From positions 9,294-73,293 of IMG/VR virus record IMGVR_UViG_3300035670_000147: a stretch of DNA of 64,000 bases. One strand, given 5' to 3'. Source of the DNA: a virus. Below, in pieces: positions 4,724-40,356 of this stretch. Position numbers and translations under genes: made by a program. The notes below the pieces were generated by a model. The model was not told the DNA's origin and did not search any database. It saw only the letters and a program-made list of their open reading frames with translations. The stretch's first letter is position 1, and each line of letters starts with the position of its first letter.

Positions 4724-5623
4724 TTGAAGCGGGTCTTGTTTTTTATTGAGAACAACTGGGTCTTCGGAAAGATATTCAATGAACTCTCCAAGCACATTTA
4801 CCCACTCTACGATTGCGACATATTCGATTGGGGCAAGGTCCAAGAAAAAGAAAACACGGACCGGATGCAGCAAAAGTACGATTTATTCTTCTCCACACCC
4901 GTGGGATGTTTTTTCCTGCACGACACCTACGGAATCCCGCTGGAACGATGCTATGGTCACGCCCACAGTGACTTTGACATCGTGGACGCCCGCAGACGAT
5001 TTCCGCCCGAATACTTCGACCGACTGCGCGGCTATGGCGTAGTGTCGTCGCCCCTGCGTTATGTTTCTTTTTCGCACGGCGTTCGTCGCGTGCCCGCAGT
5101 GTTACCCGCCGGCGTAACGTGCGCAAACTATCAACGGACGCCGCCTGCAAAAATAGCGCGGCTGGGTTACTTCGGGCGGATGACGCGCAAAGACGGCAAT
5201 TTTGATATCAAACGCGGTTATCTCGCCCAGACTGTCGCAGAAAAAACACAACTTGAATTCTGGAACCGCGAGCACGTGCCGTTCTTCGTCGCCGACCGGC
5301 TGTATCACGAAGTTGATCTAGTTATGTTTTGTTCGCTCGTTGAAGGCAATCCGTACGTGGCGATCGAAGCCTGTGCCGCCGGAATTCCGACGCTCGGAAC
5401 CGCTGCGGGTATTTTTCCTGACATCGCCAATATGGGCGCCGGAATTTTACTTCCCATGGAAGAAGATGCTTTCGTTGCTAGCGCCGTAAAAACAATTTCG
5501 ACTTTACAAAACGAGCCGGCGCTGTACGCTCGTATGTGTGAAAACGCCGCAGAGGTCGGCAAGACGTTCGATTGGTCCGTCATTAAAAACACGTGGATCG
5601 CTGAGTTTCAGCGCGTGACATAA
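4724..5623 (+). CDS. Glycosyltransferase (GT-B fold, GT4-like)
   Basis: LGYFGR...KRG; SLVEGNPYVAIEACAAGIP (E-x7-E motif); C-terminal FDW. Confidence 0.8.
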   Translation: MKRVLFFIENNWVFGKIFNELSKHIYPLYDCDIFDWGKVQEKENTDRMQQKYDLFFSTPVGCFFLHDTYGIPLERCYGHAHSDFDIVDARRRFPPEYFDRLRGYGVVSSPLRYVSFSHGVRRVPAVLPAGVTCANYQRTPPAKIARLGYFGRMTRKDGNFDIKRGYLAQTVAEKTQLEFWNREHVPFFVADRLYHEVDLVMFCSLVEGNPYVAIEACAAGIPTLGTAAGIFPDIANMGAGILLPMEEDAFVASAVKTISTLQNEPALYARMCENAAEVGKTFDWSVIKNTWIAEFQRVT

Positions 5624-5662
5624 ACGCCCCGCGCACGGATGCCCCAACGCGAAAGGATTCGC

Positions 5663-6298
5663 ATGGCCCAAAAACTAATAGAGATCGTCCCGACGAAACG
5701 CCAGATTCAACGCGCCCGCGACCGTGAAGAGGAAATGACCGCGCTGTTTACGGCACGCTACGGACGCAGCCACTTGAACAACTCGATTCTTGAAGGCGAA
5801 GGCATGTTCGCCGGCTTATTGGGTGAAGACCTGTTTCGCGATTATTACGGGTTTGTCCGGTCTTCTGGCGAAGCCATCTTTCATTACGACCTGCTAGACT
5901 CGGTGATTCTCGGGAAGATCGAGGTCAAAACCAAACGTTGCACGTCGGCGCCCAAGGAGCATTACAACTGCTCGATCGCGGCGAGCAACGCCGAGCAGCA
6001 GTGCAATTACTACGCTTTTGTTCGCGTGCTCAATGATTTCTCGCGCGCGTGGATTCTGGGTTTAATGCCCAAAGACGATTTTTTTGAAAAAGCGCTGTTC
6101 TTCAAGCGCGGCCAGACTGATCCGGCTGGTTTTGGTGGCTGGCGGTTTAAGTGGGACTGCTTCAACCTGCCGATTAAAGATTTATTGGCCCCGCCGCTAG
6201 TCACCCGCGGCTTTGACGATTATGATTATCGCCCGGCGCGGCATCCAGAGTTCACCCCCGAAATTGAAACTCGTAACCCCGAGGAGTTTGAAGCATGA
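5663..6298 (+). CDS. PD-(D/E)xK nuclease-like protein
   Basis: GLLGE...YDLLD...KIEVKTK...YAFVRV pattern. Two ANGGAN hairpins precede the ATG. Confidence 0.55.
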   Translation: MAQKLIEIVPTKRQIQRARDREEEMTALFTARYGRSHLNNSILEGEGMFAGLLGEDLFRDYYGFVRSSGEAIFHYDLLDSVILGKIEVKTKRCTSAPKEHYNCSIAASNAEQQCNYYAFVRVLNDFSRAWILGLMPKDDFFEKALFFKRGQTDPAGFGGWRFKWDCFNLPIKDLLAPPLVTRGFDDYDYRPARHPEFTPEIETRNPEEFEA

Positions 6299-6837
6299 CA
6301 TTATCTGATTCCGGCCCGAAAGGCCCGCTCGGCGAACCGGGCCTGACGCTGCAGTCGTTTCTGGAGTTCATGAACAATGACCTGCAGAACGAGTGGACGC
6401 ATTTAAAGTTTTATTTGTACCACTCGGCGCTGATTGCGGGGCTGCACTCCGCCGAGTACCGCGAGTTCTTTACTGACGCGGCCAAGGGCGAAATGGAGCA
6501 TGTGCAAGCGTTCATGGACCGGCTGCTGGGGCTGAACTACTCCAACCCGACGCAGACATCGGCCGCGTTTTCAACGTTCTCGCACCCCGCGGACGCGATT
6601 ACGCACGCCATCGAGTTAGAAATGCATGTTGTTGAAAACTACATTCAGCGATTGAAGCAGTTGGAGCATCTTTCTGCGGCCCACCCGGTAACCGCCCGGT
6701 ATTTAACTGTGTTCTATGAAGATCAACTCAAGGACAGTTACGAGGACTGCGAGCGGATGCGCCGGATTATGTCGGACGACCTGCGGCAGATTTTGCGCAA
6801 CACCCGGCACGACCCGCACAAGTTTTTAGCCAAGTAA
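6295..6837 (+). CDS. Ferritin/bacterioferritin-like di-iron protein
   Basis: Four-helix-bundle pattern: NNDLQNEW...FYLYH...GEMEHVQAFMDRL...AIELE...VENY. Confidence 0.75.
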   Translation: MTLSDSGPKGPLGEPGLTLQSFLEFMNNDLQNEWTHLKFYLYHSALIAGLHSAEYREFFTDAAKGEMEHVQAFMDRLLGLNYSNPTQTSAAFSTFSHPADAITHAIELEMHVVENYIQRLKQLEHLSAAHPVTARYLTVFYEDQLKDSYEDCERMRRIMSDDLRQILRNTRHDPHKFLAK

Positions 6838-6841
6838 TGTC

Positions 6842-6934
6842 ATGACGGAGATACTGTGGTGTGTTGCGGTCGCATTGATGCTGCACTTGCTTACTCGCGC
6901 CGGCGGCAACACGACGGACACGGGGCCAAGGTGA
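6842..6934 (+). CDS. 30-aa small hydrophobic protein (not in ORF track)
   Basis: MTEILWCVAVALMLHLLTRAGGNTTDTGPR fills the gap; its stop abuts the tRNA. Confidence 0.35.
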   Translation: MTEILWCVAVALMLHLLTRAGGNTTDTGPR

Positions 6935-7006
6935 TGCCCGGTAGCACAATGGTAGTGCACGGCACTGTTAATGCTGGGGTTGTAAGTTCGAGTCTTACCC
7001 GGGCAG
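6935..7006 (+). tRNA. trnN: tRNA-Asn (GTT), CCA not encoded
   Basis: Acceptor stem TGCCCGG/CCGGGCA; D arm GCAC/GTGC; anticodon arm CGGCA-CTGTTAA-TGCTG; T arm GTAAG-TTCGAGT-CTTAC; discriminator G. Confidence 0.95.
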
Positions 7007-7014
7007 TTTGAGCG

Positions 7015-7560
7015 ATGATTGTTGAGATCGGCACCTGCGACTTCGAAACCCAAGCCGGAGTTGCCGACGGATTGTTTATCGAACCGGTCAAGTATTATTT
7101 CGACCGGCTCCCGCCGTGCCGCAAAGAAAATGTGGCGGTATCCAACTACACCGGCGAAATTGATATCTATTACGTGGACCCCGACGAGATCGCCGCCCGG
7201 GGGCTCGATACGTGGCTCCGCGGCTGCAACTCAGTGGTTCGGCCACACATGCAGCACGCCCGCCTGCCGCCGGAAATCGTACGAAAAGATACGGTGCCGG
7301 TTGTGCGGATCAAATCACTGCTCGATAAATACGAAATTACCGAGATTGACACATTAAAAATCGACACCGAGGGGCACGACGCGATAATTTTGAACGATTT
7401 TTTAAGTACGACCAGCATCCGCCCGCGGGAAATTATGTTTGAAAATAACGGGCTTGTTCCGCGCGCAGACATTAAATTGCTGGCAACGCGCTTGCAAACT
7501 TTGGGTTATGCTGTCACGATTACGGATGGCGCCGGGTACGCCCTGCGGCCTAGTACTTAA
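7015..7560 (+). CDS. FkbM-family methyltransferase
   Basis: VEIG, FIEP, ENVAVS and IDTLKIDTEGHD motifs. Confidence 0.8.
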   Translation: MIVEIGTCDFETQAGVADGLFIEPVKYYFDRLPPCRKENVAVSNYTGEIDIYYVDPDEIAARGLDTWLRGCNSVVRPHMQHARLPPEIVRKDTVPVVRIKSLLDKYEITEIDTLKIDTEGHDAIILNDFLSTTSIRPREIMFENNGLVPRADIKLLATRLQTLGYAVTITDGAGYALRPST

Positions 7561-9279: not shown

Positions 9280-10314
9280 ATGGCTAAAGGACTCGACGTC
9301 GGAACTTCTTTTATCGTGCTGGCCTCGGACTCAGACGCCCCGATTAGTTACACCAGCGACGACAAGTTCGGGTACGTCAAATACACCGATTTCCGCGACG
9401 CCTTTTTCGTCATTAAGCCTACGACGCCAGTCGCCACGAAGATGATTGAAAAGGGCTTGCAGGGAAAAGTGTTCGTGAAAGACACGGACGGCTCATTTAT
9501 CATTCTCGGTCAAGACGCGATCGAAAAAGCCATCGAGCGTAACGAGTCGGCCAAGCGCCCCATGTATCGCGGCGTTGTAAGCCCCAAAGAAAAAGAAGCG
9601 AAGCGCGTGCTGGCCTACATTCTCCAGCAGGTGTGCGGCCAAGCCAGCGAGCCGGACGAAAAGTTGGTGTTCTGTATTCCGGCCCAGCCCGTCGATCAAG
9701 AAGACGACGAGTTTGATGTCGGATATCACGAAGATGTGGTCAAAACCGTGCTGCAGGGCCAAGGGTACAGCGCGCGGGCGATCAACGAGGCGGAAGCCCT
9801 GTGCTACTCGGAGTTGGAGAACGACGATTACACTGGCGTGGCGCTGTCGTGGGGCGCCGGCATGGTGAACTGCTGCGTCATGCTCAACGGCGAGCCCACG
9901 GTGACGTTCTCGACCACGAAATCGGGCGACTGGATCGACCGCATGTCGGGCATTGCGACGGGCGAGCCGGATAGCGTCGTGCAGGCCGAGAAAGAAAATG
10001 GCGAGTTCGTAATTGGCGAACAGAATGACAATCCGGTTCTCGCCGCGGTCAGCGCCTACTATGAGCGGCTGATCGACTACACCACGAAGCAATTGGCAAA
10101 TGCGCTCCGCGGGCACAAAGCCTTGCCCAAGTTCAAGAGTCCTTTGCTCGTCGCGTTAGCCGGCGGAACAACGCAGGCGCAGGGTTTTGTGGCGATGTTT
10201 GAAAAGAAACTGGCGGAGAATGAGTTTCCGTTGCCGGTCAAAGAAGTGCGCCACGCCGCAGACCCTTTACACGCAGTTGCCCGCGGTTGTTTGATTGCTG
10301 CCAAAGTGCTCTGA
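9280..10314 (+). CDS. Actin-superfamily ATPase (MreB/FtsA/MamK-like)
   Basis: Phosphate-1 GLDVGTS, connect-1 INEAEA, phosphate-2 LSWGAGMVN, adenosine LAGGT, connect-2 PLHAVARG. Confidence 0.85.
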   Translation: MAKGLDVGTSFIVLASDSDAPISYTSDDKFGYVKYTDFRDAFFVIKPTTPVATKMIEKGLQGKVFVKDTDGSFIILGQDAIEKAIERNESAKRPMYRGVVSPKEKEAKRVLAYILQQVCGQASEPDEKLVFCIPAQPVDQEDDEFDVGYHEDVVKTVLQGQGYSARAINEAEALCYSELENDDYTGVALSWGAGMVNCCVMLNGEPTVTFSTTKSGDWIDRMSGIATGEPDSVVQAEKENGEFVIGEQNDNPVLAAVSAYYERLIDYTTKQLANALRGHKALPKFKSPLLVALAGGTTQAQGFVAMFEKKLAENEFPLPVKEVRHAADPLHAVARGCLIAAKVL

Positions 10315-11732: not shown

Positions 11733-13655
11733 ATGGATGGCTTCTCTATTCTTGACGGCGTGTGGCGGAAACCGCTGACGAGCCAGCGCGAATACCACGT
11801 CGGCAACGCGATTGGGTGGCTGGCGCGCACAGAAAAACAAGCCGCCACGCAACACGCCCTCGCCGGCCGGCTGTATGTGGCGAAAAGCGGCTGGCTACTC
11901 CTCTCGGTTCCGAACGCGCTGGTCCGGGGCGTCTACGACGCGATGACCGCCCCCGGCGCCGAACTTCCGCTGGCGGGCACTATGAATGTGCCCAACGTAG
12001 CCAGCGATGTCTTGAACGCGCATATTTCGGTCATGACCGCCGAAGAAGTCAAAAAGATCGGCGCTGAAAATATCAATGAGCGCGGGCACATGGTCGGCTA
12101 CTCGCTGGGCCACCTAAAAGAAATCACGCCGAGGAACGTTGCCGGCGTGAGCAAGGTCTGGGCGCTGCAGGTCTCGTCGCCCATGCTCTCGGCGATTCGT
12201 AAAAGTTACGGGCTACAGCCGTTCGTAAATGGCCACCCGTTCCACATTACCGTTGCCGTGCGCCGGAAAAACGTGCTGCAGGCCAATAGCACGCGCAAAG
12301 CCGCGGCGGCCGCTAAAAGCCCGCAGCCCCGTGTGCGCGTCGTCGTGCCGTACAAAGACCAGTATTTGATGGAAACGCTCAATAACTCGAAGTGGCCTGA
12401 AAATATCGGCAAACGGCGATTTATCGGTGGCGGTATCGAAACGGGCGAAACACCAGAACAGGCCGCTGCGCGTGAGTTATTCGAAGAACTCGGCGTGAAG
12501 ATCAAACCGACCGCTTTTCGCGCTTTAGGTAACGATCCGCGCGAAGGATGGCAGCACGAGCATTATCTGGAACTGCCCAAGCACAAACTCAAGCCCGGAA
12601 ATTTTAACGCTACCGTTGGTTCTGACGCCGTGGTCACGCTTTCGCACGGGCTGCCCGAAGGCGACGATTATATGGGGCCAGACATCAAAAAACTGCTTGC
12701 TCCTGTTTTGAAGAAGGCAAATGACCTGCTTCACGGCGGCGCGGCAGACAATATGTCCGACAGTAAATTTCCCAAAGAAGAACTTGCCGAAGGAGCAGAG
12801 CATGAGCGCGAGCACACCGACAATGACCAAATCGCCAAAGAAATTGCCAAAGATCATCTGCAAGAAGACCCGGCCTACTACAAAAAAGTAGAGGCGATTG
12901 AAAAAGACGCGGCTACAGCAGTGGTGCCGGTACCGCAGCCGCCGAAGCCGCCAGAAATGCGGGAAGATGTAACCGCCCCGCCTGAGATGCCCCCGCCCCC
13001 GACAGCCGACGTCGCGTTTGGTGTTGTCCCGCCGCCGGCTCTCCCGCCATCCGGGCAGCAACTCCAAAGCCCGCAGCAGACCCCAGAGCAAGAAGAGCAA
13101 GATAAACAAGCAGAGTCTAAGGCGCTCTTGTTAGCCGAACTTCAAGCGGCAAAAGAGCACTCAGATAACAAGCGGTACGAACTAAAAACGCAAATTTTGC
13201 GGCGATTAATGCAACAATCGCCGCAAGACTGGCGTGTAGACGATCCAAAACCCTACCACAAAGGCATTACGCACGGGCCGACCAAGTTTAAGTTTCACGT
13301 CGAGCCGACAGCGATTCCGGCGTCCGTAAAAGCCGCGGCCCGCCAGCCGCGCAGCGCGTACATGTCGGCGCTCTATAACTCGTACGGTCTGCATCGACCA
13401 ATTACGTACAACTACAACAAAACAGTTGCCGAAAACATTCAGGATCAAATGATGATGGTAAAGCAGCGCGGCGACTTCATGCGCAACGCTAAAATTAATC
13501 ATCAGCGATACATGGCCACGCTCGACCCCAAATACCGGTATGAGTTAGCAATGAAAGCCATGAATAACGAACTCGAAGAAGAGCCGATGGTCGACAAAAT
13601 GATCGGGCGGTATGGCGATAGTTTTATGAACACGATTTTTGGGAGGCCGAAATGA
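11733..13655 (+). CDS. Multidomain protein: 2H phosphoesterase + Nudix hydrolase + DUF5661-like module + C-terminal domains
   Basis: HISV and HITV 2H motifs; Nudix box GGGIETGETPEQAAARELFEELG; EHEREHT...AKEIAKDHLQEDPAYY. Confidence 0.75.
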   Translation: MDGFSILDGVWRKPLTSQREYHVGNAIGWLARTEKQAATQHALAGRLYVAKSGWLLLSVPNALVRGVYDAMTAPGAELPLAGTMNVPNVASDVLNAHISVMTAEEVKKIGAENINERGHMVGYSLGHLKEITPRNVAGVSKVWALQVSSPMLSAIRKSYGLQPFVNGHPFHITVAVRRKNVLQANSTRKAAAAAKSPQPRVRVVVPYKDQYLMETLNNSKWPENIGKRRFIGGGIETGETPEQAAARELFEELGVKIKPTAFRALGNDPREGWQHEHYLELPKHKLKPGNFNATVGSDAVVTLSHGLPEGDDYMGPDIKKLLAPVLKKANDLLHGGAADNMSDSKFPKEELAEGAEHEREHTDNDQIAKEIAKDHLQEDPAYYKKVEAIEKDAATAVVPVPQPPKPPEMREDVTAPPEMPPPPTADVAFGVVPPPALPPSGQQLQSPQQTPEQEEQDKQAESKALLLAELQAAKEHSDNKRYELKTQILRRLMQQSPQDWRVDDPKPYHKGITHGPTKFKFHVEPTAIPASVKAAARQPRSAYMSALYNSYGLHRPITYNYNKTVAENIQDQMMMVKQRGDFMRNAKINHQRYMATLDPKYRYELAMKAMNNELEEEPMVDKMIGRYGDSFMNTIFGRPK

Positions 13656-15816: not shown

Positions 15817-16644
15817 ATGGCACGGAAGCCGAAACAGACAACTGAAAGCAAAAACGTCATTCCAACGAGTCAGGCGTTAAAGTATTTGTTCAACCTTGGA
15901 TATTTCGGAAAAGACCCGTGGTCGAAGGTTCGGTCAATACGCGGCAAGGAACTGGAAAAGGCCATTGCTGCGTATCAAGAGTTTAACGGGATTGAGCCGT
16001 GCGGGTGTGTAAACGACGTGACGGCCCACCGATTCAATCGGCGGCGGTGCGGGCTGCCGGACTTCGGGCTCACAGACCCGAACGGCGAGCCGTGCAAGTG
16101 GCCGATGAAAAACATTACGTACTATCACGAAATTAAAATGCCGGGATTGAGCGACGAGCAGGTTCGTGAGGCGTATGACGTCGCGTTCAGTCAGTGGGCC
16201 GAGGTTTGCAACATTGAACCGACCCGCGTTGACAGCCCGGCTCGTGCCAACATTTATGCGCGTTCCGGGACCGGCCGAAAAAATCATCTCGATAATCGCG
16301 GCGGCACATTAGCGTGGAGTGAGTTACCGTGCGGCGTTCATGAAACTATTCAGTTAGACCAGATGTACGACGAGGCTGAGCCGTGGTCGTTTAACATGGC
16401 TATCGCAGTGATGTGTCACGAACTCGGACACGCGCTTGGCCTGCCGCATTTAAACGATGGTAATTTAATGGCCCCGTACTACGACCCGAATGTGACGGCG
16501 CCGCAGAAAGATGATATTAAAGAAATCGTAAAGTTATACGGGAAACGCGCGCAAAAGTACCCCATTACGAAAGACGCGTCGCTAAAAATTGGCGGCACAA
16601 TCGTAATTAACGGTCGCCCGTATGTACTCGTGCCAAAAACCTGA
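15817..16644 (+). CDS. Matrixin (M10) metalloprotease with MMP-type propeptide
   Basis: HELGHALGLPH zinc motif, Met-turn LMAPYY, cysteine switch RRCGLPD, PG-binding-like prodomain (YLFNLGY...AIAAYQEFNGI). Confidence 0.85.
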   Translation: MARKPKQTTESKNVIPTSQALKYLFNLGYFGKDPWSKVRSIRGKELEKAIAAYQEFNGIEPCGCVNDVTAHRFNRRRCGLPDFGLTDPNGEPCKWPMKNITYYHEIKMPGLSDEQVREAYDVAFSQWAEVCNIEPTRVDSPARANIYARSGTGRKNHLDNRGGTLAWSELPCGVHETIQLDQMYDEAEPWSFNMAIAVMCHELGHALGLPHLNDGNLMAPYYDPNVTAPQKDDIKEIVKLYGKRAQKYPITKDASLKIGGTIVINGRPYVLVPKT

Positions 16645-20953: not shown

Positions 20954-21970
20954 ATGGGCTACGCAGAAGACGGCAAAGAAATCATAAATAACATTGTGTT
21001 GGGCACCGGAGTCGGGGCCTCGGCGACGGGGCTGTATTATCTGGCCAAGAAACTGCGGAAGCGGTTTGAAGAGCAGTTGGCTAAGAATGCGCCCAATACG
21101 CCGGACTATCACGACGTAGCCCTCGACGTGCCGAAACTCGAATCGCCTGCCCAGCCGAAGTTAGCATTTGACGCTTACAGTGTCGCGACACCTCTGGCTA
21201 CTGGCGGTGCGAGCGCAATTCTGGCGGCGGCCCTGTCGAACAAAAAAAATAAACTTCGTAACGCCGCTATTGCAGGCGCGCTGGGTGCCGGCGCCGGCGC
21301 TGGTTTGAACACCAAGCCCGTGCACGAGTTTGTCGGTAAAAATATCCCCAGTTCTATCTTCCCGTTTCTCGAACCAGTTATGGGCGGCTCGTGGTTTGAC
21401 CGCGGCTCTGGTTACAACGCTTGGAACGCCGCTTTGAATGTAGGTGGCGCCGGCCTTGGACTCGCAGGCGGAAAAGCCCTATACGACATGTCGGTCGCTC
21501 CGCAACTTGAGGTCGAGAAAAAGAAGGAGCACTACAACAGCGTAAACGACGCCCGTAAAAAATACTTTGACGCACTGCTGCGTGACGAAGACGACGACAA
21601 GAAGAGCGACAAGAAAGCCTCGGTAAACGACGCGCTCGAAGCCGCGTACACAGCCTACGCCGAAAAGAAAGCCGACTGGAAGGACTACATCAATCCGCTC
21701 AAACTGCCGCTATTAAAGCAGGTCTTTTACGACTTGCCCAACATGTACGCGGCGGCTGGCGTGGGCGCGACATTAGGTGGCGGCCTAATCGGCGGCAAAT
21801 ACATGTACGACAAGACGATGGCGGCGTCAAAAGCCAAGAACTTGGCGAAAGCCCTCGCCGCCAAGGAGCGAATGAAAGATGCGCTGCCAGTGTGGGTCGA
21901 CCCGCAAGAACTGGCGCAAATTAAAGACGTAGCCGCCGAGAAGGGCCTAGCCGCTGATCAAGGGGTGTGA
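20954..21970 (+). CDS. Glycine-zipper protein with K-x-A sites, putative virion internal protein
   Basis: PKLA, DKKA, EKKA; several GxxxG hydrophobic segments. Confidence 0.6.
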   Translation: MGYAEDGKEIINNIVLGTGVGASATGLYYLAKKLRKRFEEQLAKNAPNTPDYHDVALDVPKLESPAQPKLAFDAYSVATPLATGGASAILAAALSNKKNKLRNAAIAGALGAGAGAGLNTKPVHEFVGKNIPSSIFPFLEPVMGGSWFDRGSGYNAWNAALNVGGAGLGLAGGKALYDMSVAPQLEVEKKKEHYNSVNDARKKYFDALLRDEDDDKKSDKKASVNDALEAAYTAYAEKKADWKDYINPLKLPLLKQVFYDLPNMYAAAGVGATLGGGLIGGKYMYDKTMAASKAKNLAKALAAKERMKDALPVWVDPQELAQIKDVAAEKGLAADQGV

Positions 21971-24900
21971 CCATGTCAGACCCGCTGCCCCCGCTGCGCG
22001 CCCCCGCTCCGTTTCCTCCCGCTCCAGCGCTCCCGCAGCCGACACCGCCACAAACGCGCGCATTCGGTGATGTTGGGGCTCTGCGCGACAGCATTTTTAA
22101 CGAGGCGCTCCGCTCGGCGTCAGGGATCGAGCCGATTCAGAACGACCTGTATACGTTAAAGTTAACCAACGTCGCGTATACGGGTCCGGAACGCTACTCC
22201 CGTAAAGACCAAAAGAAAGCGGTGTTAACTCGCGGCTCGTTGGCGCGAAAGTTAACAGGAACGTGGACTTTAATAGAAAATGGCTCGGAAAAGCCTGTCG
22301 CTACGCGACAGGCTACTATAGCAAACGTGCCATATCTGACCGACTCGGGTACGTTTGTAAACAAAGGTGTCGAATACACGCTGGCACACCAACTCCGACT
22401 TCGGCCGGGCGTGTTCACGCGCGAAAAAGATAACGGCGAACTGGAGTCGCACGTTAACACGCTGCCGGGCAAGGGCCGCTCGCACCGGTATTACATGGAC
22501 CCCAAAACCGGCGAGTTTCAAATCCAAATCGGGCAGGCCAAGATTCCGCTGATGCCGCTGCTGAAGACGCTCGGCGTGCAGGAAAAGCAGATACGGGAAG
22601 CGTGGGGCAACGAGATCGCCTCTGTAAACATGCAGAAGGGCGATGCGGGCACGCTGGATAAACTTTACAGCCGCCTCGTGTTCAAGCCAGACCCCGCCGC
22701 AGATCAGTTAGCCAAGATCAAGGCTATCGCCGCGGAGTTCGCAAAAACAGAGTTAGACGAAGAGGTCACGAAACGAACGCTGGGCAAGCCGTACAAAAAT
22801 CTCACGCCGGAAGCGATTCTCGACATCACCAAAAAACTCATCGCTGTTAATCGAAAAGAAGCCGACAGTGATGACCGAGACAGCATGACGTTTCAGCAAG
22901 TCTTTGGGCCGGAGGATTTGATATCAGAACGGTTTGTGAAAGATAAGACCGCGTTGCGTCAATTGTTGTGGAAAGCGACCGCAAAGAAGTCGCTCGACCA
23001 TATTCCCAGCGGCGTATTTAACAAAGCCATTACCGCTGCGCTAATTGGCTCTGGGCTGGGTTCATCGCTCGAAGAAATTAATCCGGCAGAAATCTTTGAC
23101 CATCAAACGCGGGTCACCCGCCTTGGTGAGGGCGGCATTGGTTCGATGGACGCCGTACCGGCGGAATCGCGCAGCGTCCAGCCCAGCCATTTCGGGTTTA
23201 TCGACTACCTGCGCACGCCCGAGTCTGGCAAGGTGGGCGTCGACATGCGCTTCGCGTCGGGCGCCCGCAAGTTAGGTAATAACTTGCACACGTTTGTCGT
23301 GCCCGTCAAGAACGCTAACACTGGCGAGACAGAATATAAAACCCCGCAAGAACTGTCGGACATGCCGCTCATGTTTCCGGGCGAAGAGAAGTCCGACCTG
23401 CCGATGGTTGCGGCGCTTGTTAACGGCAAGATCAAATACGTGCCACGCAAGGACGCGCAGTACACCGTGCCGAACATGGACAACACTTTTTCGTCGCTGA
23501 CAAACATGGTGCCGATGAAAAGCATGGTAAAAGGCCAGCGCGTCATCATGGGCAGCCGCATGTTTACGCAGGCGCTTCCGCTTGAAAATGCTGAAGCCCC
23601 GTTTGTGCAGTCCGCTAAGTTTGATAGCGACGGGTCTATATCGCACGAAGACGAAATGGGCGAAAAGTTAGGCGCGATTAAAGCCCAAGTTGGCGGGCAG
23701 GTTCTGTCTGTCACGCCAGACGACATGGTTATTCGCGACAAGGACGGGCAAAAACACACGATAGACCTGTACAACGACATGCCGTTCAACCGAAAGACGT
23801 TTTGGACGCAGACGCCGACAGTCAAGCCCGGCGATACGGTGCAGCCCGGCCAACTTATTGCCACAAGCAACTTTACTGACAAAAGCGGCTCGGCCGCGCT
23901 GGGGCTGAACTTGCGCGTAGGCTACACGCCGTTTCGTGGTCGGAACTATGAAGACGCGGTTGTGATATCTGAATCGGCGGCCAAGAAACTTACTAGCCAG
24001 CACATGTATCAGCACGAAGCCGAGTGGGACGACAACACGCACGTCGGAAAAAAGTCTTTTTTGAGTTTGTTTCCCGCCGAATATGACAAGAAGGTGCTAG
24101 AAAACTTTGACGACAACGGCGCAATTAAAAAGGGTTCAATCGTAAACTTCGGTGATCCGCTTGTGCTCGTCGCCAAGAAGCGCGATCAGGTGTACGGCAA
24201 AGTACACCGCGGCCGAGCGGGTGCTTTTGCAAATGAAACAATTACGTGGGAACATCATTCTCCGGGCGTTGTGACTGACGTTGAGCACACAAAAAAGGGC
24301 GTATCGGTCGTCGTGAAGTCGCAGGCGCAGATGGAGGTTGGCGATAAAATTACGGGTCGTTTCGGCGATAAGGGCGTTGTGTCTGAAATTGTGCCGGACG
24401 ACCAGATGCCGCAGGACGCGAAGGGTCGCCCGCTTGAAATTCTGGTCAGTCCGCTCGGCCTTATAAACCGCGTAAACCCGGCGCAAATTATTGAAGCGGC
24501 TCTCGGAAAAGTTGCCGAAAAAACTGGCAAGCCGTTCAAAATCAAAGACTTCGACAACGACAATGATTTGATCGAAATGGCGATGGCTGAGTTGACTAAA
24601 AACGGTCTGACAGACACCGAAGACCTGATAGACCCCGAGACTGGGCGCAAGATTCGCGGCGTGCTGACTGGCAATCGTTTCTTTATGAAACTGCACCATA
24701 CGGCAGAGTCGAAGGGGCAGGGGCGGTCTATTGGTGGTTACACGGCAGAAGGCACGCCGGCAAAAGGCGGCAGCGAAGGCGCCAAGCGTGTCGGCATGTT
24801 GGAACTGGGTGCGCTTCTTTCGCACGGTGCCGGCAAAGTAGTCCGCGACGCCAAAATGGTGCGCGGACAGGCTAACCCTGAGTATTGGACGCAGTTCATG

Positions 24901-33147: not shown

Positions 33148-35082
33148 ATGCGTTCACTCAGCAAGGAAGCCGAGCAAAAATTAATTGGCGCGATCGAAAA
33201 GGCCGCCACGCTCGTTAACGAAGGCGCGACCCCGACAGACGCAATTATCAAAAGCGCGCGCGAACACGATATTCCGTCGGGCCACATTAACCTTATGGTG
33301 CACGCTTACAACACCGGGCGCACCACGACGCAACGAGAAAAAGGAGAAAGCACGCTGGAAAAAGCGGCGGAATTTCCGTTGGCAGACGTTAAAGACGTGT
33401 TAAACGCCCTGTATCCCGAAACGGTAAAGTCCTCGTCTGAGATTAAGCGCGCAGAGGCGGTCTCCACGGAGTATGCGCTGCCAGTCGCTGGCATGCTGGC
33501 CCGCCGGCGCGGAGAGATGCAAAAGGCCGCTGCGGCTCAAGTCGCGCTGCCAGAAAAGACTTGGACGCCGCCACCGCGCGACGCCCACGCGGCTGTCATG
33601 CGCGCGCAAAGCGAAAAAGTTGCGGCGCAGCGGGCGGAAGAAGAAAAACGGCGGCAAGCGTCAGCGGCGTACAGCAAGGCCGCCGCCGCCATGGATGAAA
33701 TAAATATTTATTTCAGGACGCCCGGCAACATGCTATTCGGCGACGCTGTCCGAGAAGTTGGCTTACGGTTCGGCGACCCGGGTGTTTCAGTGCTGCAAAA
33801 AGTTGCGGCCGTATACCCGCACTTTACGAAACAGGCAGATAGCAAGAAAGCGCACTTTGGCGCAGACCCTGTTTACGAGTTGGTGCAAAATGTTCTGGAC
33901 GCGGTAGGTGCGTATAACAGCGCGCAAGGAGCCGTAGTCACAAAAAAATCTGAAGCGGTCAGTAAGAAAACCGCACCAGAATTTCTTACAGGCTCGATCC
34001 TGACAGCGATTCAAGAAGCGCCGCTGACATTAAAAGCCGCCGAAAGAAAAGGCGGCCCGGGAACGAACCCGCTCGGCGACCGAGCCAAGAACACGAACAA
34101 GCAGCCGCCAAAAGACAAGACGCCCCATATACCCTCGTTAAAGTCTACTCCCAAGCGTGAAGAGCCAGAGCCCGCCCCCGGCCCGGCACCGTCAGCGAAT
34201 ATTGACCCTCGCACAGCCGTTGACGGCCCGGATGACTGGGACGTGGGACCGACCCCCGAATTAGACGCGGCACTCGAAGAAATATCTTTTGGAGAGCAGT
34301 TAGACCGGAATAGGGCCGACGCAGCCGCGCGCAACCAAGAATACGCGCGGCAAAAAATGCTTGACGAAGCCAGCGAATACGAACGCGCCGAAAAAGAAAA
34401 ACTGCAAGACGCTTTATTTAACGAAAGCGAAACAAAGCGTGTGCAGCAAGAGCGGGACGAGGCGTATGCCAGAAAACTTCGGGACGAAGACTTGGCCGAC
34501 GACGCCGCGGCCGCAGAACAACTGAAAGCCGAGCAAGCACAAGCCGCCGAAACAAAGAAACAACGGCAAGAAACTTGGAGCAAAGGTAAAGACATCGGCA
34601 AAAACTTTGGCGAAGGTGTTAGCAAAACCATTAAAGACACGGTCGGCGAGCCGCTGACCGGGCCGGCAAAATTTATTGGACAACTGCTCGGGGCGAAGGA
34701 CCTGAGCGCCCTATCACCCATTAAAGATAAAGACCCGAAAAGCATGCTGCGCGAGCAGTATCAACAACTCACTGATCCAAGCCACGAAAATGCTCTCAAG
34801 ACAATTCGCGCAAAAAGCATTGTCCACGACATGGTGCTAAACGACCCAGTTATCTCGGGTTACGACCCGCAAGACGTCGCGATGGCATTTAACGAGATTG
34901 CGGAGTTGGCTCCGAGCCTCATTGACGCCCCGGGCATGATCCGCCCGCTGCTGCGTAAGCGCTTAGAGTCGGGACAGTTGGCCGACTTTGACGTTAAGCA
35001 AATTTTGGAGATGGACAAACTCCGGGCCGACCGCGATAAGACTTTGATGGACGTCAAAGACAAAACTCTCAACCTGCTGTAG
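33148..35082 (+). CDS. Coiled-coil head-associated protein with many K-x-A sites
   Basis: IKSA, EKAA, IKRA, QKAA, EKVA, QKVA, TKQA, KKTA, LKAA. Confidence 0.6.
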   Translation: MRSLSKEAEQKLIGAIEKAATLVNEGATPTDAIIKSAREHDIPSGHINLMVHAYNTGRTTTQREKGESTLEKAAEFPLADVKDVLNALYPETVKSSSEIKRAEAVSTEYALPVAGMLARRRGEMQKAAAAQVALPEKTWTPPPRDAHAAVMRAQSEKVAAQRAEEEKRRQASAAYSKAAAAMDEINIYFRTPGNMLFGDAVREVGLRFGDPGVSVLQKVAAVYPHFTKQADSKKAHFGADPVYELVQNVLDAVGAYNSAQGAVVTKKSEAVSKKTAPEFLTGSILTAIQEAPLTLKAAERKGGPGTNPLGDRAKNTNKQPPKDKTPHIPSLKSTPKREEPEPAPGPAPSANIDPRTAVDGPDDWDVGPTPELDAALEEISFGEQLDRNRADAAARNQEYARQKMLDEASEYERAEKEKLQDALFNESETKRVQQERDEAYARKLRDEDLADDAAAAEQLKAEQAQAAETKKQRQETWSKGKDIGKNFGEGVSKTIKDTVGEPLTGPAKFIGQLLGAKDLSALSPIKDKDPKSMLREQYQQLTDPSHENALKTIRAKSIVHDMVLNDPVISGYDPQDVAMAFNEIAELAPSLIDAPGMIRPLLRKRLESGQLADFDVKQILEMDKLRADRDKTLMDVKDKTLNLL

Positions 35083-35090
35083 GGCTAACT

Positions 35091-36548
35091 ATGAGCATGA
35101 TTAAAGTCATTCAGCCGCACTCGCAAGAGTTTAGCGAGCCGGTCGCCGCGCTGATTAAAGTTTCAAGTCGGGGCATTATTGGCCACGACAAGCAAGCGTT
35201 TGTAAAGCGCGCCGGGGCAGAGTTCGTCGAAAAAGTATCGCACATTAAATTCGCAAAAGATGAAGTTCCTGTGCACCTGATCGCTATCGGCGCCACTGAA
35301 GATTACGGGCCCAACCGCAACGGCGACGGGTTTAGCCGAGACACTTGCAAAAAAGATCATCATACGTTTGAGAAGTTAGCGCGGTTTTATCGTGACCACG
35401 CCAACAAAAACCCGGCTAAAAGTTTCGGGATTGTAAAGGCGTCGTACTACAACGAGCCAATGAAGCGCATCGAATTGATCTGCGCGCTAAACGGGTCAAA
35501 AGAGGCCGCCGATCGAAACGGCGGACTTCTTGCCGACAAAGAGATGGAAAAACTCTCGTCAGGCAAGGACATCCCCGTGTCCATGGCTTGCAAAATTCCT
35601 TTTGATATTTGCTCGGCCTGCGGCAATAAAGCCCGGACGCGCGCCGAATACTGCGACTCGATTGAAAACGGCGGACACTGTAAGGCGGGCGGGTTAAAAC
35701 ACAATATGGGTCGTGTGCTGGAAGACGGCCACATCCTTCACGCCGACAACATTAAATGCGCTTTTTTCGACATCTCTCACGTTTTCAGGCCCGCCGACCG
35801 GATCGCGTATGTATCAGGCCGGCTGGAAAAGGCGGCCTCAGCAGGGATCATTTCCGGCGCAGAACTTGCCGAGCAAATGGGGGTCACGATGCCGTTTGGG
35901 CTCGACTCTGCCGCGGCGTCGAAACAGGCAGCGAGGCAATTTAACGCGCTGCAGCAACTGGCCCAAGCCGAGCAAGAAGGCGTTAACAACTCGGCCGGCT
36001 GGACGCAGGCTGCGCTTGCCAGTCACCCAGCCGTGCAACCCCCGCTCGATGTAAATTCGTGCCCGTTTGCTAAAATGGCCGAAGTGCTGCGAGGACTTGC
36101 CGACGCTGGCGTGATCTTGTCAGTGCGGGATTTCTTGGCACTTACGGTAAAATCTGCTAATGTAAAACTTGTTGATGCAGTGACTTATGCGCTGCCCAAC
36201 ATTTTTTCCAAACTTGCGGCAGAAGAAGATATCGGTTCATTACTCGAAAACAACAAGTTCTATCCGGCAGAAGGGGCGTCAGAGTCCGTACGACTTTGGG
36301 CCGAAAAGGTCGCGACCACACACAGCGCGCTAACCCCTAATGTCGAAAAACGAGCGTATTTGGCCGCAATTCGCAACGTTAAACCTGTAAAACCAGAAAT
36401 AGAAAAGCGGGCGAGCACCAACGCAGAAATTGCACTTGCGAAGCATTACGCTTTGTATAAGATTGCTGCATTCGCTGCCGCCGGCGAAAAATATCAGAAT
36501 AACTTGTTGACAGCAAACCACTGTGTAATGCAAAATTATGTCACGTGA
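35091..36548 (+). CDS. Putative prohead maturation protease
   Basis: NRNGDGF, RDH, VSMACKIPFDICSACGN, FFDISHV..PAD (His/Ser layout of HK97/assemblin-type head proteases); directly upstream of scaffold and capsid genes. Confidence 0.65.
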   Translation: MSMIKVIQPHSQEFSEPVAALIKVSSRGIIGHDKQAFVKRAGAEFVEKVSHIKFAKDEVPVHLIAIGATEDYGPNRNGDGFSRDTCKKDHHTFEKLARFYRDHANKNPAKSFGIVKASYYNEPMKRIELICALNGSKEAADRNGGLLADKEMEKLSSGKDIPVSMACKIPFDICSACGNKARTRAEYCDSIENGGHCKAGGLKHNMGRVLEDGHILHADNIKCAFFDISHVFRPADRIAYVSGRLEKAASAGIISGAELAEQMGVTMPFGLDSAAASKQAARQFNALQQLAQAEQEGVNNSAGWTQAALASHPAVQPPLDVNSCPFAKMAEVLRGLADAGVILSVRDFLALTVKSANVKLVDAVTYALPNIFSKLAAEEDIGSLLENNKFYPAEGASESVRLWAEKVATTHSALTPNVEKRAYLAAIRNVKPVKPEIEKRASTNAEIALAKHYALYKIAAFAAAGEKYQNNLLTANHCVMQNYVT

Positions 36549-36595
36549 ACAAGACGCTAACTGCTAATAACAGTTAGGCCTTAAAGGAGATAAAC

Positions 36596-37894
36596 ATGGC
36601 ACGGATGCAACGTTCCCTCTTCGCTCAACTTAACGCTCTCGCGGAAGAAATTTCGCAGAGTTCGGTAAAGGCCGCCGCCGAAAAGAAGGCTGGTCCTGTT
36701 CCTTCTGACCCGGGCGGGTATCAAGGCGCTTCGACGCATCCGTCTGTCAGCGTAGGGAACGACGTGCAGGATGCCCCCTCCGGCGATCGTGCTCGCGAGT
36801 ACGAAGCCGACATCAAAAAGCAGCAGGGCGCGGTTTCCGTAGACAGCGCCCCCGAGATGTCGCAAGAGGGCCGGCAGGACGATGTCCAGTTGAACATCGG
36901 CACAAACGCCGCGGCCACCGGAGAAGACCCGGCTGCTGAAAAAGATTACAAGGGCACCAAAGACGACCCGGGCACCTCTTCGCCCGTTAAAGCCGACGAC
37001 GGCGAAAAGTATTCGTCGGTAACGTTTAAGCAGGCGCGCGACGCCTGCAGCACCCTTGGCAACGATATCTTGGCGAACCTGATTAATTTCGGCACGTCGA
37101 ATCTCAAGCAGGCCGAAATGCCGGCAGGTTTGGCGAAGGCGCTGCACGAAAAGAAAGAATCGCCCGCCGAAGAAAAAAGCGAACACAAGGGCGAGTTAAA
37201 GGGCGACCAGCATAAACTTGACGTCGACGACGACGGCAAGATCGAGGGCTCTGACCTCGCCGCCCTTCGCGCCGGCAAGGAAGCCGCTTACGAAGCCGGT
37301 TACGAACTGGCCGCGGCGCTGGGTGTCGAAAAAGACGCCGCCGAAGCCGCAGTGCGCGAGGTTTGTGCCAGCACAATCCGAGAAGCCGACGAGATGGCTG
37401 ACTTGTTAATCGGTTTTTTAACGGCTAAGCAGGCCGGAGCCGATGTTATGGACGAGGCAGCCGCGGGTGAAGATCATGGCGTGCCGGCCGATGCCGCCTC
37501 CGGCGCTAACGACGCGCCCCCGACGGGTGGCGGGCTTGAAGAAATGATGGCCGCTGGACCGGAAGGTGAGGCGGGCGGCGAGATGGGCGGCGAGATGGGC
37601 GGCGAGCCGAGCGACGAGGAAGCCGTGCAAGAACTGGCCATGGCGCTCGAAGAACTTGGAATCCCGCCGGAAGCGCTGCTGCAGGCCGTAGCCGAAGGCG
37701 GTGGCGGCGAAATGGGTGGCGGCGAAGCCGAGGCACCCAAAATGGCCGCCGCGGCCGATCTTAACGCGATCGGGCGTGCTGTTGTGAATTTTAAGCGTGC
37801 CGGAAAGTTTCAGGTCAAGGAAGCGCGCACCAAGCGTTCGCGCCAACTCCGCGACGTCATGAAGCAGCACGTGCTGGAACTCGTTAACCGATAA
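36596..37894 (+). CDS. Putative capsid scaffold protein (acidic, K-x-A-rich)
   Basis: Acidic low-complexity protein between protease and capsid genes; about 10 K-x-A sites; DVDDDGKIEGSD EF-hand-like loop. Confidence 0.55.
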   Translation: MARMQRSLFAQLNALAEEISQSSVKAAAEKKAGPVPSDPGGYQGASTHPSVSVGNDVQDAPSGDRAREYEADIKKQQGAVSVDSAPEMSQEGRQDDVQLNIGTNAAATGEDPAAEKDYKGTKDDPGTSSPVKADDGEKYSSVTFKQARDACSTLGNDILANLINFGTSNLKQAEMPAGLAKALHEKKESPAEEKSEHKGELKGDQHKLDVDDDGKIEGSDLAALRAGKEAAYEAGYELAAALGVEKDAAEAAVREVCASTIREADEMADLLIGFLTAKQAGADVMDEAAAGEDHGVPADAASGANDAPPTGGGLEEMMAAGPEGEAGGEMGGEMGGEPSDEEAVQELAMALEELGIPPEALLQAVAEGGGGEMGGGEAEAPKMAAAADLNAIGRAVVNFKRAGKFQVKEARTKRSRQLRDVMKQHVLELVNR

Positions 37895-37911
37895 GTCACG
37901 GAGGTTTACTA

Positions 37912-38337
37912 ATGTCCGATACGAACACGCTTGTACAGAAAGTCATCGACTACATCGGTTATTCCGATGCCGCGCTGACCAAGGCTGCTGCGGCGATCAA
38001 GGCGCAGGAAGAGCAGGCCGAAAAGTTGGCCGCGCTTATTCCGGCCGCGGTCGAAGCCTGCGTTGAACACGAACGTATTGAAGCCCACCAGAAAGAGGCG
38101 CTTGAGAAGGCGCTTCACGATCCGGTGCGCACAATGGAACTTGTCGTCAAACTCGCCGGCCACAAGAACGCCGCCGAGATGGCGCGACTCGGCACACCTG
38201 TGGGTCAGCAGAAGTCCGCTTCTTACGACCCCGATAAAAGTTTGACGAGCGGGTATGTGGGTGCCCGCGATGGTCGCCTCAAGGCCAGCGACATTAAGTT
38301 GTTTACTGGTCTTGGTCTCAATCCGCCCACTACCTGA
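37912..38337 (+). CDS. Helical head/scaffold-associated protein
   Basis: TKAA, EKLA, QKEA, VKLA, QKSA; GGAGG RBS. Confidence 0.55.
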   Translation: MSDTNTLVQKVIDYIGYSDAALTKAAAAIKAQEEQAEKLAALIPAAVEACVEHERIEAHQKEALEKALHDPVRTMELVVKLAGHKNAAEMARLGTPVGQQKSASYDPDKSLTSGYVGARDGRLKASDIKLFTGLGLNPPTT

Positions 38338-38373
38338 TAGATACAATAACTTTTTAGACATGGAGGTCTAACA

Positions 38374-38967: not shown

Positions 38968-39005
38968 ACTAATCAACCCTAATAGAAGACATGGAGGTCT
39001 TTAAA

Positions 39006-39932
39006 ATGCCCACTCAGCAAGAAGTTCAACTGCTCAACGAGACGCTTTTTGAGCAACTTGACACCCCCGGCATGCAGAAGCAGGCCATTGACGCGGTTAA
39101 CGACTTCACGCGCACCAAAATGCGTGAAGACGGGTTCTACCGGCGGATTATGCCGCCGCTGACCATCACCAACGACGAACTGGACCGTCAGGTTGACACT
39201 GACAAGCCGGTCAAGGTGGTGGACAAGGAGCCCGATTCCCCGGCGGCTGTGTCGCTCCCGTTTGCGACACTCCCGATCAACTTCTACATCCGTGGCCCGC
39301 GCTACCGCGTCATGTTTGACCGGATCGTGTCGCCCCGCGCTGTGAAGGACGTCGACGAACTCCGGACGTATGTCATCGACATCCGTCAGGTGCTCAGCGA
39401 CAACATGATCAAGGACATGCTCGCCGAGGAGGACTCCAAGTTCATCAACGCGATGGACGCCGCGGTTGGCGCCGCGGACACGAACAACGCGTTGTCTGGC
39501 GTTCCGCAGAACGTCACGATCTCGGGCGGAATCACCCGCGAGACGATCGTTGACGCGCTGAAGGTCATGCCGTCGACTCCCAGCCACTTCGAGGTGGAGA
39601 CTTGCTTGGTGAACAACATCACCATCAAGGAACTGCTGAAGTTCGGCCGCGACGAGATGGGCGGTGACTTCTCGCAGGACATCATCAAGAACGGTTGGGC
39701 GGAGACCAACTTCCTCAACTGCCGCTGGATTGTCACGATCAAGCGGAATCTTGTGCCGAACGATGTACTGTACATGTTCGCCTCGCCGAAGTTTATCGGC
39801 AAGAACTACGAGTTGGAGCCCACCACGATGTACATCCGTCGCGAGGCTTACATGCTTGAGTACTTTGCGTACAACACGCAGGGCGGCTCGTTCGGTCACA
39901 CGAACGGTCTGGCCAAGGTAACGTTTGTCTGA
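39006..39932 (+). CDS. Major capsid protein (HK97 fold, inferred)
   Basis: 308 aa; strong codon bias; position after protease, scaffold and decoration genes; helical IKDMLAEEDSKFINAMD segment. Confidence 0.75.
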   Translation: MPTQQEVQLLNETLFEQLDTPGMQKQAIDAVNDFTRTKMREDGFYRRIMPPLTITNDELDRQVDTDKPVKVVDKEPDSPAAVSLPFATLPINFYIRGPRYRVMFDRIVSPRAVKDVDELRTYVIDIRQVLSDNMIKDMLAEEDSKFINAMDAAVGAADTNNALSGVPQNVTISGGITRETIVDALKVMPSTPSHFEVETCLVNNITIKELLKFGRDEMGGDFSQDIIKNGWAETNFLNCRWIVTIKRNLVPNDVLYMFASPKFIGKNYELEPTTMYIRREAYMLEYFAYNTQGGSFGHTNGLAKVTFV

Positions 39933-39963
39933 GCCGTATAAATAACAAAGGAGCACCATCACC

Positions 39964-40356
39964 ATGTCCGAGAACATTAAGGAAGCGGCAGAGCAGGCTT
40001 ACGCCACAGTTGTGACGCAACTTGCTGCGCCATATTTCTTCGAAAAACTCGCCGCGCACGGCATTACGCCGGGCTCGGAGGGTGAAGCCGCAGAAATGTG
40101 GACTGCCGCGCAGAAATTGCACGTGCTCTATACGGCGGAACAGGAAAAAACCGCTGCGGCAAGGCACAGTGGTCTGGCTGCTGTAAATCAGCAACTGGAT
40201 GCGGTGCTTGCGGCGGCGACGGGCACCGACGGCGGCGACGAGAAGCAGGCTGCGTTTTATGACGTAGCCGCTCTCGCCGCAGGCCGGCCCGAAATTGCCG
40301 ATGCTGTATTAACCCTGCAAGCCGCCGCTGCTGCGGCCATGCAATCCGCAGAGTAA
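39964..40356 (+). CDS. Ala-rich head-associated protein
   Basis: IKEA, EKLA, EKTA, EKQA. Confidence 0.55.
   Translation: MSENIKEAAEQAYATVVTQLAAPYFFEKLAAHGITPGSEGEAAEMWTAAQKLHVLYTAEQEKTAAARHSGLAAVNQQLDAVLAAATGTDGGDEKQAAFYDVAALAAGRPEIADAVLTLQAAAAAAMQSAE

Follow-up and report, generated by a model that had tools for sequence, protein, structure and literature searches.

The window analysed in this study is a stretch of 64,000 nucleotides from a virus (positions 9,294 to 73,293 of IMG/VR record IMGVR_UViG_3300035670_000147). It belongs to a one-strand, phage-like contig of 73 kb, which also encodes a capsid-like protein, a tail-sheath-like protein and many open reading frames (ORFs) without a family match. 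At 11733..13655 on the + strand lies an ORF of 640 residues plus stop, which Pfam and AlphaFold resolve into a modular "Swiss-army-knife" polyprotein, with a flexible linker carrying the tetrapeptide K-x-A-[AS] between each folded module and the next (here and below, x or a dot stands for any residue, and all features are on the + strand unless stated). The chain opens with an N-terminal leader (residues 1-37, 11733..11843), a candidate propeptide that contains a helix at residues 19-31 and ends in K35-Q-A-A, with a predicted local distance difference test score (pLDDT) below 50 at residues 33-40. The leader is followed by a 2H phosphoesterase domain (residues 41-184, 11853..12284; PF22547, E 5.1e-9) with H97-I-S and H171-I-T, by the junction K189-A-A-A (12297..12308) within a disordered linker at residues 185-194, and by a Nudix hydrolase domain (residues 195-328, 12315..12716) recognised by Pfam, motif and fold match. 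The junction K327-K-A-N (12711..12722), which reads KKAA or KTAA in relatives, leads to a three-helix DUF5661 module (residues 341-395, 12753..12917) with H357-E-x-E-H361 and D374-H375, identified by Pfam, AlphaFold and motif. The junction K391-D-A-A (12903..12914) then precedes a disordered Pro/Gln-rich spacer (residues 396-450, 12918..13082; pLDDT below 50 at residues 399-445). The C-terminal part consists of an alpha-alpha-beta-beta-beta module (residues 451-530, 13083..13322), termed the AKEHSDNKRY module, the junction K533-A-A-A (13329..13340) and a helical module (residues 541-640, 13353..13652), both modules being delimited by AlphaFold.

Three of the modules score above their Pfam cut-offs, namely 2H-SAK (PF22547, residues 95-180, 36.9 bits against a cut-off of 27), NUDIX (PF00293, residues 218-290, 43.6 against 21.1) and DUF5661 (PF18905, residues 350-391, 37.2 against 27). 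The C-terminal module has a weak PDDEXK_7 match (E 0.012) that falls under the curated Pfam cut-off. Both the 2H and the Nudix domain retain intact catalytic motifs. Both 2H motifs are present (HISV at residue 97 and HITV at residue 171), H171 and T173 being conserved in 103 and 100 of the 120 rows of the family alignment, respectively, and the Nudix box GX5EX7REUXEEXGU is complete at residues 233-254. A sequence-only reading of this DNA had proposed a chain of nucleotide-processing enzymes laid out as leader, 2H, Nudix, DUF5661-like, Pro-rich and C-terminal parts; the ORF, the Pfam matches, the motifs and the AlphaFold model bear out this layout, and the analysis supports a modular chain of such enzymes.

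The same reading had placed a K-x-A at every apparent domain junction. K-x-A occurs at residues 35 (KQA), 189 (KAA), 327 (KKA), 391 (KDA), 458 (KQA) and 533 (KAA), and five of these six sites are junctions, the one at residue 458 lying within a predicted helix. The six occurrences of the bare tripeptide are at chance level (5.0 expected from composition), whereas K-x-A-[AS] is found four times against 0.83 expected from 300 composition-preserving shuffles. The junction motif is therefore better defined as K-x-A-[AS], and what is non-random is the extended motif and its placement, not the bare K-x-A count.

The placement is reflected in the predicted structure. AlphaFold modelling of the whole protein, based on an alignment of 120 of 264 family members, gave a mean pLDDT of 82.9 and a predicted template modelling score of only 0.37, the latter fitting independent domains arranged like beads. 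The folded units of the model are helix 19-31 and residues 41-184, 195-328, 348-395 (three helices), 451-523 (two helices and three strands) and 542-636 (helical). All five junction sites coincide with confidence dips between folded modules, in agreement with the assignment of the sequence-only reading: pLDDT is below 50 in segments 33-40 and 185-194, which hold K35QAA and K189AAA, and falls to 68, 66 and 63 in the ten-residue blocks 321-330, 391-400 and 531-540, which hold K327KAN, K391DAA and K533AAA, compared with about 90 on their flanks. The 2H domain was modelled at pLDDT of about 86-97. The Nudix fold matched 3r03_B (Z 12.1, root-mean-square deviation 3.1, 120 residues aligned, model residues 192-326); MutT, ADP-ribose pyrophosphatase and RppH chains scored alike, so that the match favours no one Nudix subfamily. 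In three fold searches the whole 640-residue model returned only Nudix matches, as did a PDB sequence search with the whole protein. A PDB profile search with a 2H profile (15 of 26 sequences) gave no match, and an ESM Atlas search with residues 466-640 gave no usable match.

To judge from its homologues, the polyprotein belongs to an uncultivated clade of roughly 200-kb phages. A total of 390 homologues were scored at E<=0.001, the best 120 of which were listed, and among 50%-identity representatives there were 4768 matches at E<=0.001, including 299 at E<=1e-30. By this measure the metagenomic family is of very large size. The homologues are all metagenomic, many of them from contigs of about 200 kb, and one 2H-SAK gene is present in a complete genome of 204.6 kb from the clade to which the window belongs. 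Neither tblastn nor megablast, run with the polyprotein and the region that holds it against a collection of 50,697 phage records, gave a match.

The architectures of the family differ by whole modules. The Nudix module is present or absent, relatives without it being about 436-515 residues long, and it can also stand first in the protein; some relatives carry two further Nudix types. A P-loop kinase (AAA_18/SKI/AAA_33), GNAT, a histidine phosphatase (His_Phos_1) and a Cys-rich module are found in others. The AKEHSDNKRY module turns up again in other architectures, and the Pro/Gln-rich spacer is optional, being carried by some relatives and missing from others. K-x-A-[AST] precedes the 2H core by no more than 20 residues in 128 of 153 scorable family members. 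In many relatives, including P0002, P0024, P0029 and P0101, peptides of the form (E)LSR[ST]G(Q/T)(K/N)D, at times repeated, precede DUF5661; they are absent from the window protein.

The boundaries of module exchange were located as the internal alignment ends from an all-against-all BLASTP comparison of 264 metagenomic relatives. On the window protein these ends cluster at residues 192, 329, 397, 447 and 465, three of the five clusters lying at junction motifs (K189-A-A-A, K327-K-A-N and K391-D-A-A) and the other two flanking the optional Pro-rich spacer. The biggest cluster, at residue 192, holds 112 of 563 high-scoring segment pair ends, and for K533-A-A-A breakpoints are seen at the equivalent site in relatives. 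Across the family, 57.6% of 1321 internal breakpoints have a K-x-A at a distance of at most 6 residues, compared with 12.0% of random positions, and for K-x-A-[AS] the figures are 31.7% and 6.1%, respectively. When the junction after the 2H domain was excluded, K-x-A still accompanied 51.2% of the remaining 803 breakpoints, compared with 11.9% of random positions. The logo of the junctions, built from 680 distinct contexts, reads [ELVS]-K-[AQT]-A-[AS]-[AD]. No enrichment at breakpoints was found in the 264 proteins for the controls E.A[AS], K.[LV][AS], L.E and [SAG].E, and the T4-type and phiKZ-type motifs among them, L.E and [SAG].E, were set aside as junction motifs. Mild enrichment was found for AAA (11.0% against 3.0%) and A.A[AS] (7.3% against 2.7%), because these patterns overlap with KAAA. 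Moreover, the tripeptide avoids other places in the close family. In 120 close relatives K-x-A was observed 536 times near breakpoints (103 expected) and only 100 times away from them (437 expected), which is an approximately 4-fold depletion. The excess near breakpoints recurred in 144 diverse representatives (302 observed, 58 expected), where the controls E.A and K.L stayed near 1. Architectures and breakpoint statistics together thus confirm what the sequence-only reading had left to be checked, that homologues swap modules at K-x-A boundaries; within this sequence comparison, modules are exchanged among relatives at K-x-A linkers.

The tetrapeptide is common to the polyprotein and to head-assembly proteins of the same phage. 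Counted in the 67 + strand ORFs called on the whole contig and compared with shuffles, K-x-A-[AS] was observed 52 times against 25.2 expected, and the excess stems from the polyprotein and from five ORFs in 33148-40356, which together hold 22 sites against 4.7 expected. These five encode a charged head-region protein of 644 residues with four K-x-A-A sites (33148..35082), a head-maturation-protease homologue of 485 residues with six K-x-A-[AS] sites against 1.21 expected (35091..36548; residues 137, 247, 275, 374, 438 and 457), an acidic scaffold-like protein of 432 residues with four K-x-A-A sites against 1.10 expected (36596..37894), a head-region protein of 141 residues with four K-x-A-[AS] sites against 0.42 expected (37912..38337) and another of 130 residues with four K-x-A-A sites against 0.44 expected (39964..40356). 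In the protease homologue, all sites except that at residue 137 lie at or past the end of the N-domain. The major-capsid-protein-like gene in the same block (38991..39932, 313 residues) has no K-x-A-[AS]; it matches phrog_2522 (E 2.3e-5), is syntenic with gp226 of Salmonella phage Arash, annotated "major capsid protein", and is the most conserved ORF of the head block.

The sites are also conserved between phages. Orthologues were aligned from 39 related head loci, with those below 40% identity or covering less than half of the query dropped and identical rows collapsed, which left only 4 rows for the protein at 33148-35082. In the scaffold-like protein, sites 25, 246 and 382 are kept in 30 of 30 rows and site 228 in 29 of 30; the K and the A-A are invariant or nearly so, the x is variable, and conservation of the flanks goes down to 0.18. 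In the protease homologue, sites 247 and 457 are kept in 26 and 30 of 30 rows, respectively.

Occurrences of the tetrapeptide in other proteins of the contig are listed here as observations in their own right. An SNF2-type helicase (window coordinates -844 to 1204, its 3' part at 2-1204) has K-T-A-A at residue 22 of its full-length form, and several other ORFs have K-x-A-[AS] in their first 50 residues; these early sites hint at N-terminal propeptides on more packaged proteins. An ORF of 779 residues upstream of the window (coordinates -9087 to -6748) has four K-x-A-[AS] against 1.42 expected, together with a Cys-rich stretch that resembles the Cys-rich module of polyprotein relatives, and may be a second connector-delimited protein.

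Sequence comparison identifies the ORF at 35091-36548 as a head-maturation-protease homologue. In tblastn searches its N-domain matched gp77 of Rhodococcus phage E3, annotated "prohead protease" (E 4e-12), and gp13 of Gordonia phage Stormageddon, annotated "capsid maturation protease", and the ORF matched gp19 of Bacillus phage G (E 9e-14), which is named head maturation protease in part of PMC12484599, and gp222 of phage Arash (E 3e-30). A relative with 31% identity, from the complete 208-kb phage L064, matches phrog_18299, "head maturation protease" (E 3.1e-4). An alignment of the N-domain was built from 24 of 40 sequences, L057 being left out on account of a stop codon, and all 24 share H103 and S164.

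Arash and L064 served as control phages. In Arash, the products of three genes that adjoin its protease homologue are rich in K-x-A-[AS] (gp220, seven sites against 0.57 expected; gp223, six against 0.86; gp225, five against 0.51), and these three proteins, as well as the Arash DNA helicase, are among those detected in virion preparations according to a portion of PMC10585845. Since the "coverage" column of the Arash virion table gives 100% with 2 peptides, it was not used to judge loss of propeptides. The protease homologue of L064 carries 5 K-x-A-[AS] sites. A search for PF22547 (2H-SAK) found no match in either phage, and a search of L064 with the whole polyprotein found none. The presence of the motif in head-region proteins of phages without a 2H-SAK match suggests that the motif belongs to the protease system, not to the polyprotein.

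Since the linker tetrapeptide also marks head-assembly proteins, the individual enzymes are probably released from the chain by cleavage within the capsid. We assign a probability of about 0.55 to the reading, suggested by these sequence patterns, that the protein is a polyprotein packaged in the prohead and cut by the head protease into separate enzymes. Under this proposal the polyprotein would be built into the prohead, perhaps with the leader as a targeting propeptide, and the head-maturation protease (35091-36548) would cut at or beside K-x-A-[AS], acting likewise on the scaffold-like proteins and on its own C-terminal region. The freed enzymes would remain inside the capsid until they pass into the host together with the DNA, where, in the least certain step, they may act on nucleotides or RNA ends at an early stage of infection. 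Possible targets are immune signals, such as cyclic or 2'-5'-linked oligonucleotides and ADP-ribose derivatives; alternatively, cleaved RNA ends may be healed. RNA-end healing fits the module repertoire, with its kinase, phosphatase and Nudix partners, equally well as an anti-signal role. The sequence of packaging, cleavage and delivery is modelled on phages T4, phiKZ and SPN3US and would apply here by analogy. The sequence-only reading had proposed a cargo that is packaged, cut and injected against host defences; cutting and packaging gained indirect support, from the enrichment and conservation of the junction tetrapeptide in the protease homologue and scaffold-like proteins and from its depletion off breakpoints, while injection and the anti-defence role are, like cleavage and packaging, steps that we infer. 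A wider proposal, to which we give slightly less than even odds, is that this abundant, uncultivated clade of dsDNA jumbo phages uses a true polyprotein strategy, in which K-x-A-[AS] would be a standard cleavable connector read by the head-maturation protease, and enzymes recombined between connectors would be automatically packaged, released and delivered, a plug-and-play cargo evolving by module shuffling.

Several observations weigh against a cut and packaged polyprotein. The gene stands about 20 kb from the head genes, not in a late structural block; genes for small membrane proteins surround it, and the RNA-polymerase genes follow downstream. The evidence for cleavage, packaging and injection consists of sequence statistics, and the family counts come from related sequences and so describe the family rather than independent events. 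K-x-A is weakly depleted off breakpoints in the 144 diverse representatives (381 observed, 432 expected), partly because many junctions are undetectable with so few relatives. The protease assignment draws on annotations in other records and on one transitive PHROG match; the homologue has no Pfam match, PDB sequence and profile searches with it returned nothing significant, and the AlphaFold model of its N-domain was poor (pLDDT 51.9) and was not used for a fold search. The module set of 2H, P-loop kinase, phosphatase and Nudix would also be sensible as one intact multi-enzyme. The protein may also work uncut in the cytoplasm, healing RNA ends or processing nucleotides, with K-x-A-[AS] as a favoured flexible connector at which recombinants stay functional. 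The 2H domain, the AAA_18/SKI/AAA_33 kinase, His_Phos_1 and the several Nudix types would then form an end-processing toolkit able to act in sequence, as the Pfam family name "Swiss Army Knife" and the position of the gene outside the head-gene block would fit. We nevertheless consider an uncut enzyme unlikely, since a plain linker leaves unexplained why a Lys stands invariably at the second position ahead of Ala-Ala, why K-x-A is depleted 4-fold off breakpoints in the close family, and why the tetrapeptide is enriched and conserved in this phage's protease homologue and scaffold-like proteins and in those of Arash and L064.

Cleavage at K-x-A-[AS] by something other than the head protease, that is, by the DUF5661 module itself, by a matrixin-like M10 metallopeptidase encoded at 15817-16644 or by a host protease, appears less likely still. 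DUF5661 could be read as a small metal-dependent peptidase, given that it is present in most close relatives among those listed, that the residues of H357-E-x-E-H361 and D374-H375 are conserved in 92, 106, 103, 104, 108 and 106 of 120 rows, and that zincin-like peptidase domains were proposed as processors of polyvalent proteins by Iyer et al. (2017), in a passage of PMC5512222. Its first His, however, is Asp in 14 of the 120 rows, one relative reads DEREY, and a three-helix unit of 55 residues lacks the beta-sheet of known zincins; as the motif is not invariant, DUF5661 as a zincin was set aside. Of 25 related loci, 19 encode an M10 homologue downstream, a linkage that amounts to simple synteny within one clade, and the M10 protein also has a putative peptidoglycan-binding domain that suits a role in lysis or entry; it too was set aside as the processing protease. 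Moreover, neither DUF5661 nor M10 explains the motif in the head proteins of Arash and L064, where no 2H-SAK polyprotein was found. The notion that the junction signal has no biological meaning, being a by-product of Ala/Lys-rich composition or of BLAST ends in low-complexity runs, is largely refuted and seems very improbable. The chance-level count of bare K-x-A (6 against 5.0) and the slight enrichment of AAA and A.A[AS] at breakpoints would accord with it, but shuffles yield only 0.83 K-x-A-[AS] where the polyprotein has 4 and 4.7 where the head proteins have 22, E.A[AS], K.[LV][AS] and K.L are not enriched, and the sites match independent structural boundaries and are column-conserved in orthologue alignments.

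A packaged and processed polyprotein has partial counterparts among known systems. Polyvalent proteins, as described in passages of Iyer, Burroughs, Anand, de Souza and Aravind (2017, PMC5512222), are predicted to be packaged in the capsid and delivered with the DNA, and their 2H domains were proposed there to be RNases or degraders of 2'-5' or cyclic nucleotide signals. Like them, the window protein combines several effector domains including 2H in one phage polypeptide (here 2H, Nudix and DUF5661), and it fits a loose definition of a polyvalent protein. Unlike them, it has no MuF or portal fusion and no peptidase or zincin domain recognised by Pfam, and its only link to the head-packaging apparatus, from whose genes it stands about 20 kb away, is the shared K-x-A-[AS]. 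The passages of PMC5512222 considered here mention no cleavable connector that is standard to all domain pairs and no connection with a head-protease motif, and the word "linker" is found 0 times in the text of the paper.

The head proteases of T4, phiKZ and SPN3US, according to parts of PMC5694885, cleave at a single short motif found in propeptides, scaffold and packaged ejection proteins, and also auto-cleave their own C-termini; long propeptides of such substrates carry several sites. The polyprotein resembles these substrates in sharing a short motif with the scaffold-like protein and with the C-terminal region of the protease homologue. It differs in that, in the same parts of that source, those proteases cut after Glu (A-X-E or related; (L/I/A/S/G)-x-E), whereas the motif here is K-x-A-[AS], and in that those substrates lose a propeptide, whereas the window protein would yield five or more separate enzymes, following the logic of a polyprotein. 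Keyword searches of open-access text found no description of a Lys-x-Ala head-protease motif.

With respect to the 2H domain, the sequence-only reading had drawn a link to Acb1, the anti-CBASS 2H phosphodiesterase of phage T4 described in part of PMC9117128; other clades of viral 2H phosphodiesterases appear in sections of bioRxiv 10.1101/2025.08.21.671373. Like Acb1, the window domain is a phage-encoded enzyme of the 2H superfamily with both H-x-T/S motifs; unlike Acb1, it is one module of a chain, and no sequence similarity between the two was detectable. The tblastn search with the 2H domain (residues 36-195) against the 50,697 phage records gave one chance-level match, in a Bacillus phage (E 0.9), so that no link to Acb1 was found at the sequence level. 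The window protein lies above the cut-offs of PF18905 and of PF22547, the latter called "Swiss Army Knife, 2H phosphoesterase domain" in Pfam; keyword searches of open-access text found no paper behind the name "2H-SAK" or "Swiss Army Knife".

The remaining genes of the window include a multisubunit RNA polymerase (21967-26403 and 27367-29319), in which a protein of 1478 residues represents beta fused to the N-terminal part of beta' and a second gene encodes the rest of beta'. Among cultured phages, those that match it most closely are Salmonella phage Arash and Vibrio phages D69, D148 and D181, with about 32% identity. Upstream of the polyprotein, a protein of 344 residues (9280-10314) matches Pfam Volactin (PF25216) end to end (E 2.2e-58), a position that its homologues share in 23 of 25 related loci; Volactin is a family named after an archaeal actin, and the gene may be a conserved actin-like gene of this jumbo-phage clade. 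Approximately 2 kb downstream of the polyprotein, the M10 metallopeptidase (E 6e-21) has at its N-terminus a weak PG_binding_1 match (E 0.0017, 19.0 bits against a cut-off of 23) and may be a cell-wall or entry enzyme. A tail-sheath-like gene of 1185 residues with Ig-like inserts (47971-51528) is overlapped almost fully by an open frame of 1064 residues on the - strand (47998-51192), which is probably an effect of composition. In addition, a group-1 glycosyltransferase, a ferritin-like protein and an FkbM-type methyltransferase form a cluster of auxiliary genes at 4724-7560.

In summary, if the connectors are cut in the prohead, this protein family would be a counterpart, in double-stranded DNA phages, of the polyproteins of RNA viruses, and the connector would provide a general rule to predict which proteins a phage group carries into the cell. 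It would also imply that a head protease recognises Lys-x-Ala in place of x-x-Glu, a new specificity that is testable in the cultured relative Arash. The phages of this clade would then bring into the cell a large, shuffled set of first-minute enzymes, comprising 2H, three Nudix types, kinases, a phosphatase and GNAT, whose likely substrates would be host defence signals or damaged RNA.

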